DNA from: a virus
Taxonomy: Duplodnaviria; Heunggongvirae; Uroviricota; Caudoviricetes
Strand: one strand, 5' to 3'
DNA length: 11,255 nucleotides
Virus record (IMG/VR): IMGVR_UViG_2541047875_000011
Coordinates: 1-11,255 of that record
Positions 6,025 through 6,146 of this stretch are shown one piece after another. The translations under genes were made by a program, and so were the position numbers. Position 1 is the first letter of the stretch. Each line of letters begins with the position of its first letter. The notes beneath the pieces were generated by a model, which saw only the letters and a list, made by a program, of their open reading frames with translations, was not told where the DNA came from and ran no database searches.

Positions 6025-6146
6025 GCTGTATATGCAACGGAGGAAGAAACCCCGTTGCTGGCGGCATGGAAGAAGTATCGGGTGCTGCTCAACCGAACTA
6101 TACATCAGTAGCTCCGGACATTGAGTGGCCTGTACAACCGGAATAA
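6025..6146 (+). pseudogene. tfa: Remnant of the 3' end of a tail fibre assembly gene (tfa), frameshifted; N-terminal ~150 codons absent
   Basis: Frame 1 (6025-6111) reads [28 protein letters not shown], matching the conserved lambda Tfa C-terminal motif ...[20 protein letters not shown]. Frame 3 (6093-6146) then reads [17 protein letters not shown], matching Tfa ...TSTAPDIEWPAVPVME*. A 1-nt frame change lies near 6096-6099. No upstream tfa reading frame exists. Confidence 0.65.

Follow-up and report, generated by a model that had tools for sequence, protein, structure and literature searches.

The window analysed here is a stretch of 11,255 nucleotides from a viral sequence record, and it represents the right arm of a lambda-like E. 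coli prophage adjoining dusA. Across the region probed it is 100% identical to strain A24. The features of the window are listed in Table 1. The central one is a relic of the tail fiber assembly gene tfa, whose host element is a lambda-like siphovirus prophage (J, lom).

Table 1. Genes and other features of the window (positions are those of the window).
Feature	Position	Strand	Basis and comments
C-terminus of J, and lom	left end of the window		
stf1, intact side tail fibre gene (786 aa)	2929..5289	+	ORF; Pfam PF08400, E 3.7e-70; 96% identical to L002
orf89 (89 codons), phrog_1361	5289..5558	+	always found after this stf type; same in phages 21 and 2G7b
Stump of the S74 fibre gene, last 37 codons	5565..5678	+	pseudogene by PGAP; 346 aa in relatives
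Terminator-like GC hairpin with T-run	5685..5699	+	consensus scan only; between the fibre genes and the membrane ORF
Membrane ORF (97 aa, two TM segments), phrog_1443	5721..6014	+	phrog_1443, E 6.7e-59; membrane protein in phage 21
Ancient junction and relic segment A (common allele)	6015..6061	+	tfa homology from about 6021-6034; alignments
Relic segment B (LLAAW...TSVAPDIEW allele)	6062..6125	+	window-specific differences; holds the 6099/6100 deletion
Relic segment C, last 7 codons of a myovirus-type tfa (WPVQPE*)	6126..6146	+	blastn to L007; alignments
tfa-stf2 spacer with Shine-Dalgarno box	6147..6168	+	identical to L007
stf2, second side tail fibre gene	6169..7304	+	PF08400 on 6261-7304; the intact 379-aa form is P0001 (L007)
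DUF4376 gene, partner of stf2	7312..7905	+	Pfam PF14301; phrog_1141; synteny with L007 and phiP27 (phiP27 L57)
ykgJ-like gene, dinI, tyrosine integrase gene	after the DUF4376 gene; integrase 8656-9753, abutting dusA	-	

The stf1 gene combines a lambda-type N-terminal domain with a non-lambda distal part. Within it, at window positions 3466-3864, there are direct repeats of approximately 190-230 nt that share 81-86% identity and code for Ala/Ser/Thr/Lys-rich repeats (AAKTSETNAKSSQTAAK and variants). The AT skew there reaches 0.68, and the number of repeats apparently varies among relatives. The S74 fibre gene has lost its start and about 306 codons to a deletion of about 922 bp: aligned to the related locus L002, the window segment 5552-6147 resumes at position 6237 of L002 after position 5314. 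Only imperfect similarity over 12 nt was observed at the deletion junction. The intact fibre protein of L002 contains the Peptidase_S74 intramolecular chaperone (PF13884). The 97-aa membrane ORF is 95-97% identical across loci and is the constant left neighbour of the tfa relic, with which it occurs in roughly one in three complete E. coli genomes and in phage 21; a Pfam search with this ORF produced no match. The terminator-like hairpin ahead of it suggests that the hairpin and the ORF form a moron-like unit with which the late operon ends.

To the right of the relic, the second fibre gene stf2 has a 4-nt deletion (GGCG) near position 6219 compared to L007, a Mu/phiP27-like myovirus prophage. 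The first 22 codons of stf2 are out of frame with the rest, and despite the deletion PGAP calls an intact CDS at 6267-7304. Further downstream, the 3' ends of the DUF4376 gene (plus strand) and the ykgJ-like CxxCxxCC gene (minus strand) overlap convergently by 26 nt (7880-7905).

The relic was compared with tfa of phage lambda (orf-194, NP_040605). The window segment 6033-6132 aligns with nucleotides 465-565 of lambda tfa (83% identity, one gap, E 1e-24, blastn). At the protein level, tblastn aligns residues 156-176 of lambda Tfa with positions 6034-6096 (86% identity) and residues 179-191 with positions 6102-6140 in another frame, the two matches being linked with E 3.6e-9. The 41-aa peptide obtained by repair of one base matches positions 95-131 of 131 in the Pfam family Caudo_TAP (PF02413) with 61.7 bits and E 1e-16, and the unrepaired left frame scores 27.8 bits. 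No tfa segments beyond the relic were found when the whole window was searched with lambda tfa by tblastn and blastn. The relic represents only lambda residues from approximately 153/156 to 194, that is, about 38-41 codons. This agrees with the preliminary description, made from the nucleotide sequence alone, which had recognised the last forty or so codons of a Tfa-like gene with the conserved motifs split between two frames. In translation, the left motif is in the frame of position 6013, and the APDIEWP-side motif is in the frame of position 6012. Alignment to other alleles places the responsible indel at 6099/6100. The breakpoint, proposed to lie near 6020, was also located correctly, as weaker homology extends leftwards to about 6021 (GAGCTGTATA-TGCAACG in the relic versus GAGCTGGATATCGCAACG in intact genes). 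The same alignment reveals an older 1-nt deletion near 6032, common to other relic copies.

The relic is neither a full-length Tfa gene (about 190 aa with the N-terminal part) nor a translatable ORF with a start codon and a single frame: its tfa frame is interrupted by a TGA at 6022-6024, and neither ATG nor GTG is present in it. In the RefSeq annotation made by PGAP, the segment equivalent to 6034-6146 is entered as 'tail fiber assembly protein; frameshifted; incomplete; missing N-terminus'. The relic is a pseudogene fragment of the Tfa family, already annotated as such and not new in kind. It would not be expected to act as a Tfa chaperone on a cognate fibre, since the upstream fibre type has its own Peptidase_S74 chaperone in relatives and phage 21 is viable with a shorter relic. 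The same two facts would fit a fibre set that can do without Tfa.

The left edge of the relic is highly conserved. The window and 84 other retrieved loci all contain the junction AATCGTGGGTGAAAAAAGGTGAGCTGTATATGCAACGGAGGAAGA without a mismatch, directly following the phrog_1443 ORF. Six other loci were compared in detail: L003 and L004, which are the plaque-forming phages 2G7b and 21, and L002, L008, L009 and L010, which are prophages at the DLP12, prfC and Qin sites. All six are identical to the window over a stretch that begins at the membrane ORF stop codon and includes the initial 28 nt of the relic, with 19/19 identity at 6015-6033. A 101-nt junction probe has matches in 1737 of 5426 complete E. 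coli genomes (about 32%), where a match was counted if at least 80% of the probe length was covered. The window segment 5975-6061 is 100% identical in many genomes, and the exact 38-nt junction was found in 77 IMG/VR contigs. The prophages that carry it occupy several integration sites: prfC, DLP12, Qin, and dusA. This edge is an ancient illegitimate junction where a foreign block (the non-lambda distal part of stf, orf89, the Peptidase_S74 fibre gene, and the 97-aa membrane ORF) abuts tfa at codon 153-156 or so. The identity of the junction across loci and its presence in so many complete genomes, in viable phages and in the IMG/VR contigs show that the 5' four-fifths of tfa were replaced once, long ago, and that the replacement does not signal decay of this prophage.

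The right side of the relic is variable. Among 85 surveyed loci that share the identical left junction, there are at least 30 relic alleles. The DNA downstream of the relic falls into 13 sequence classes among 72 loci, each with its own Tfa C-terminal ending; the endings include PTNPVRE, ALP, LIQP, EEPDTM and VIPEV, as well as a truncation by sitABCD in the phage 21 group. With 13 different contexts, the relic behaves as a joint at which recombination has recurred. Polymorphisms in the left half (TP/TS, W/R) and the endings, e.g. PTNPVRE and ALP, occur in all four combinations, which indicates crossovers within the relic itself. The otherwise invariant tryptophan of AWKKYR is replaced by arginine or leucine in many copies, pointing to relaxed constraint, as in unconstrained DNA. 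The tfa frame is open to the native stop codon in 81 of the 85 copies.

Several tfa 3' relics of other kinds were also observed. In L016/L017, positions 4001-4129 hold 42 codons after a 1258-aa S74-type stf; in L013, positions 5876-6061 correspond to K-12 tfaX after ybcY; and phage 2G7b contains a second, frameshifted relic (L003 5944-6242). These are independent and have other left breakpoints, so retention of the tfa 3' end has happened repeatedly.

One could assume that the relic is functional, being a small ORF (with ATG at 6033 or GTG at 6021), a 3' UTR or RNA element of the membrane ORF, or an extension of the latter produced by read-through. Indeed, the relic is kept in thousands of genomes, the frame is open in most surveyed copies, and read-through of the TGA of the membrane ORF in the window would stay open to 6146. 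However, the ORFs in alternative frames vary in length and sequence among loci, conserved Tfa residues such as the above tryptophan are lost in many copies, and the right half of the relic is freely replaced. Moreover, in phage 21 the relic is cut after position 6089 by the sitABCD cargo, and the phage is viable. An Rfam search produced no match, which counts against an RNA element. A consensus scan of 6015-6170 found no terminator and no convincing promoter, the only candidate being one weak promoter-like match on the minus strand. On these grounds the relic was rejected as a functional RNA, terminator or promoter, and we consider a function of the relic at any of these levels very unlikely.

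The lineage-specific deletion at 6099/6100, the 4-nt deletion in stf2 and the loss of about 922 bp from the S74 fibre gene in the same prophage could be seen as signs of local decay, in which an intact stf-tfa pair of this prophage was recently truncated and frameshifted in situ. This seems extremely improbable, as the truncation junction is base-for-base the same in phages that form plaques and in some 32% of complete E. coli genomes, at several integration sites. Thus the truncation long predates this prophage, and the local change is confined to the 1-nt deletion.

This deletion, between 6099 and 6100, lies beside three substitutions at 6096-6098. It was placed by alignment with nine other tfa alleles, and is present relative to every other allele aligned. 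The window segment 6090-6420 was found in 8 of 5426 complete genomes, always with 100% identity. The same deletion is present in one IMG/VR contig (L014, 99.3% identical overall), and one metagenome contig (L015) carries the same sequence with 99.98% identity. Although single-base indels are a frequent type of error, an artefact of sequencing or assembly in an otherwise open frame can be dismissed with near certainty, given eight identical and independent complete genomes from different hosts and laboratories plus the viral and metagenome contigs; besides, the repaired frame is still without a start codon and some 155 N-terminal codons short, and so the intact gene with an upstream N-terminal region, which the preliminary description had considered as a possible outcome of error correction, does not appear. 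The deletion can be assigned to this lineage, to which the two-frame arrangement is confined, the other 81 surveyed copies being single-frame. A programmed ribosomal frameshift does not fit either, as there is no initiating ORF in the tfa frame and the arrangement exists in one lineage only. The deletion is a late and inconsequential change, since the relic already had no start codon and contained the in-frame TGA as well as the older indel near 6032 that other copies share. The three substitutions clustered with the deletion at 6096-6100 could have been left by repair in a further event.

The relic has a second boundary on the right. The window segment 6126-8662 corresponds to positions 6958-9498 of L007 with 96.8% identity (blastn). 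L007 has an intact 196-aa Caudo_TAP gene and, beyond the same 22-nt spacer, the intact 379-aa stf2 gene, the DUF4376 gene and dinI. This identity and the intact tfa-stf2 pair in L007 argue that the sequence from the last seven codons of the relic through to the integrase stop codon would derive from an L007-like donor. We infer that the transfer was from the myovirus-type donor to the lambdoid prophage. The homology stops at 8662 (9498 in L007), within a few bases of the integrase stop codon on the minus strand. Because the homology ends beside a dusA-type integrase gene, the whole block from the tfa fragment to dinI resembles a terminal piece of the donor prophage.

The exact position of the crossover depends on segment B. 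The window departs from every other relic copy compared at 6062, and the nearest sampled tfa alleles are approximately 87% identical to segment B (6062-6125). A protein search demonstrated that Tfa alleles of the LLAAW type exist elsewhere. A donor of segment B situated upstream of stf2 was absent from the genome, viral and metagenome contig collections searched. A search of genome contigs for related loci with stf2 produced no match, and neither did a degenerate DNA pattern covering the tfa stop and the stf2 spacer. The same pattern approach retrieved only copies of the window's own lineage, L015 among metagenome contigs and L014 among viral contigs. The best 120 matches to the repaired 41-aa peptide were all short annotated remnants, with no full-length donor among them. 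As no sampled donor tfa matches segment B, there are two candidate sites: the crossover would have occurred either at the shared TGGCCTG heptamer (6126-6132) or at 6053-6062, the latter if an unsampled donor had a tfa of the LLAAW type.

These observations modify the interpretation in the preliminary description, where the relic was considered to be a module boundary and a scar left by replacement of an earlier stf-tfa module by the present fibre module. The left boundary is real: the relic is a tfa 3' end, and a foreign block lies upstream and abuts it at codon 153-156. But the replacement predates the prophage, the fibre module itself is partly deleted, a second, frameshifted stf lies downstream, and the right seam with the myovirus module was missed.

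Fragments of tfa pseudogenes are commonplace in E. coli prophages, and it has long been established that unrelated phages exchange tail fibre modules horizontally. Against this background, we are fairly confident that the relic is a non-coding fossil of the tfa 3' end, significant as a recombination seam, with a history of four steps. Firstly, a block ending in the 97-aa membrane ORF replaced tfa upstream of about codon 153-156 in a lambdoid ancestor. This left some 40 tfa codons without a start codon in a very large family of phages and prophages. Secondly, the retained stretch, being the most conserved DNA of tfa genes, has probably served repeatedly as the right-hand crossover site for exchange with other tfa-bearing phages and prophages; such exchange would explain the observed differences between lineages in the Tfa endings and the downstream DNA. 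Thirdly, in the lineage of the window the relic became joined to the far 3' terminus of an intact tfa from a Mu/phiP27-like myovirus, presumably by one exchange of this kind, which brought in the tfa-distal block of stf2, the DUF4376 gene, the ykgJ-like gene and dinI. The fused product is what is seen in the window. Finally, the 1-nt deletion at 6099/6100 separated the two conserved motifs by frame, with no effect on a sequence that could not be translated anyway.

The only plausible activity of the relic is that of a patch of conserved homology for lambdoid exchange to the right of the late operon. In lambda x Rac crosses, crossovers do occur within the tfa homology (PMC3945230). A more speculative possibility, which we consider rather doubtful, is that the relic is retained for promoting exchange, and not by chance: this patch of about 100 nt would be a portable 'homology handle' which, paired with the conserved N-terminal domain of stf, mobilises fibre and cargo modules. 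Equally tentatively, the underlying process might be relaxed homologous recombination between unrelated phages, in this case a lambda-like siphovirus and a Mu/phiP27-like myovirus.

Compared to lambda tfa, the relic retains only the last 20% or so of the gene, has no start codon, contains at least two frame disruptions, and is not situated downstream of a fibre gene that needs Tfa. The closest analogues in kind are the tfa remnants of K-12 cryptic prophages (tfaX, b0563, DLP12), which also are 3' fragments at the right end of a lambdoid prophage beside cargo genes, and many database entries named 'tail fiber assembly protein, partial'. Identity of the relic with K-12 tfaX was considered and rejected: tfaX follows ybcY, has a different left breakpoint and keeps more of tfa, whereas the relic belongs to the class linked to the membrane ORF and its right end is fused to a myovirus-type tfa terminus. 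Phages 21 (CPT_21_24 and downstream) and 2G7b (gp25 and downstream) have the identical junction, and through the membrane ORF their DNA identity is 94%. Apart from the sitABCD cut in phage 21, which falls inside the relic, the main differences are that the relic of 2G7b reads in frame into a tfaD-like ending, and that neither phage has a second stf after the relic, unlike the window. The gene order tfa-stf2-DUF4376 is the same in the window, in L007 and in phiP27 (L54-L55(tfa)-L56-L57), where the complete order is fibre-tfa-fibre-DUF4376. However, both tfa and stf2 are intact in phiP27 and L007, whereas the window has only the last seven codons of this tfa and a frameshifted stf2.

The relic is a widespread inherited fossil that is present also in viable phages, and it should not be taken as evidence of recent tfa loss or of a prophage defect. 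It provides a clean and datable example of the mosaic joints of the tail fibre region: the left joint is ancient, and the right side reflects a series of later crossovers within about 100 nt of conserved tfa DNA, one of which brought a myovirus fibre module into a siphovirus prophage. For annotation, and for prediction of host range from prophage fibre genes, the functional fibre set in this prophage is probably limited to stf1 and orf89, as the S74 fibre gene has been deleted and stf2 carries a frameshift.
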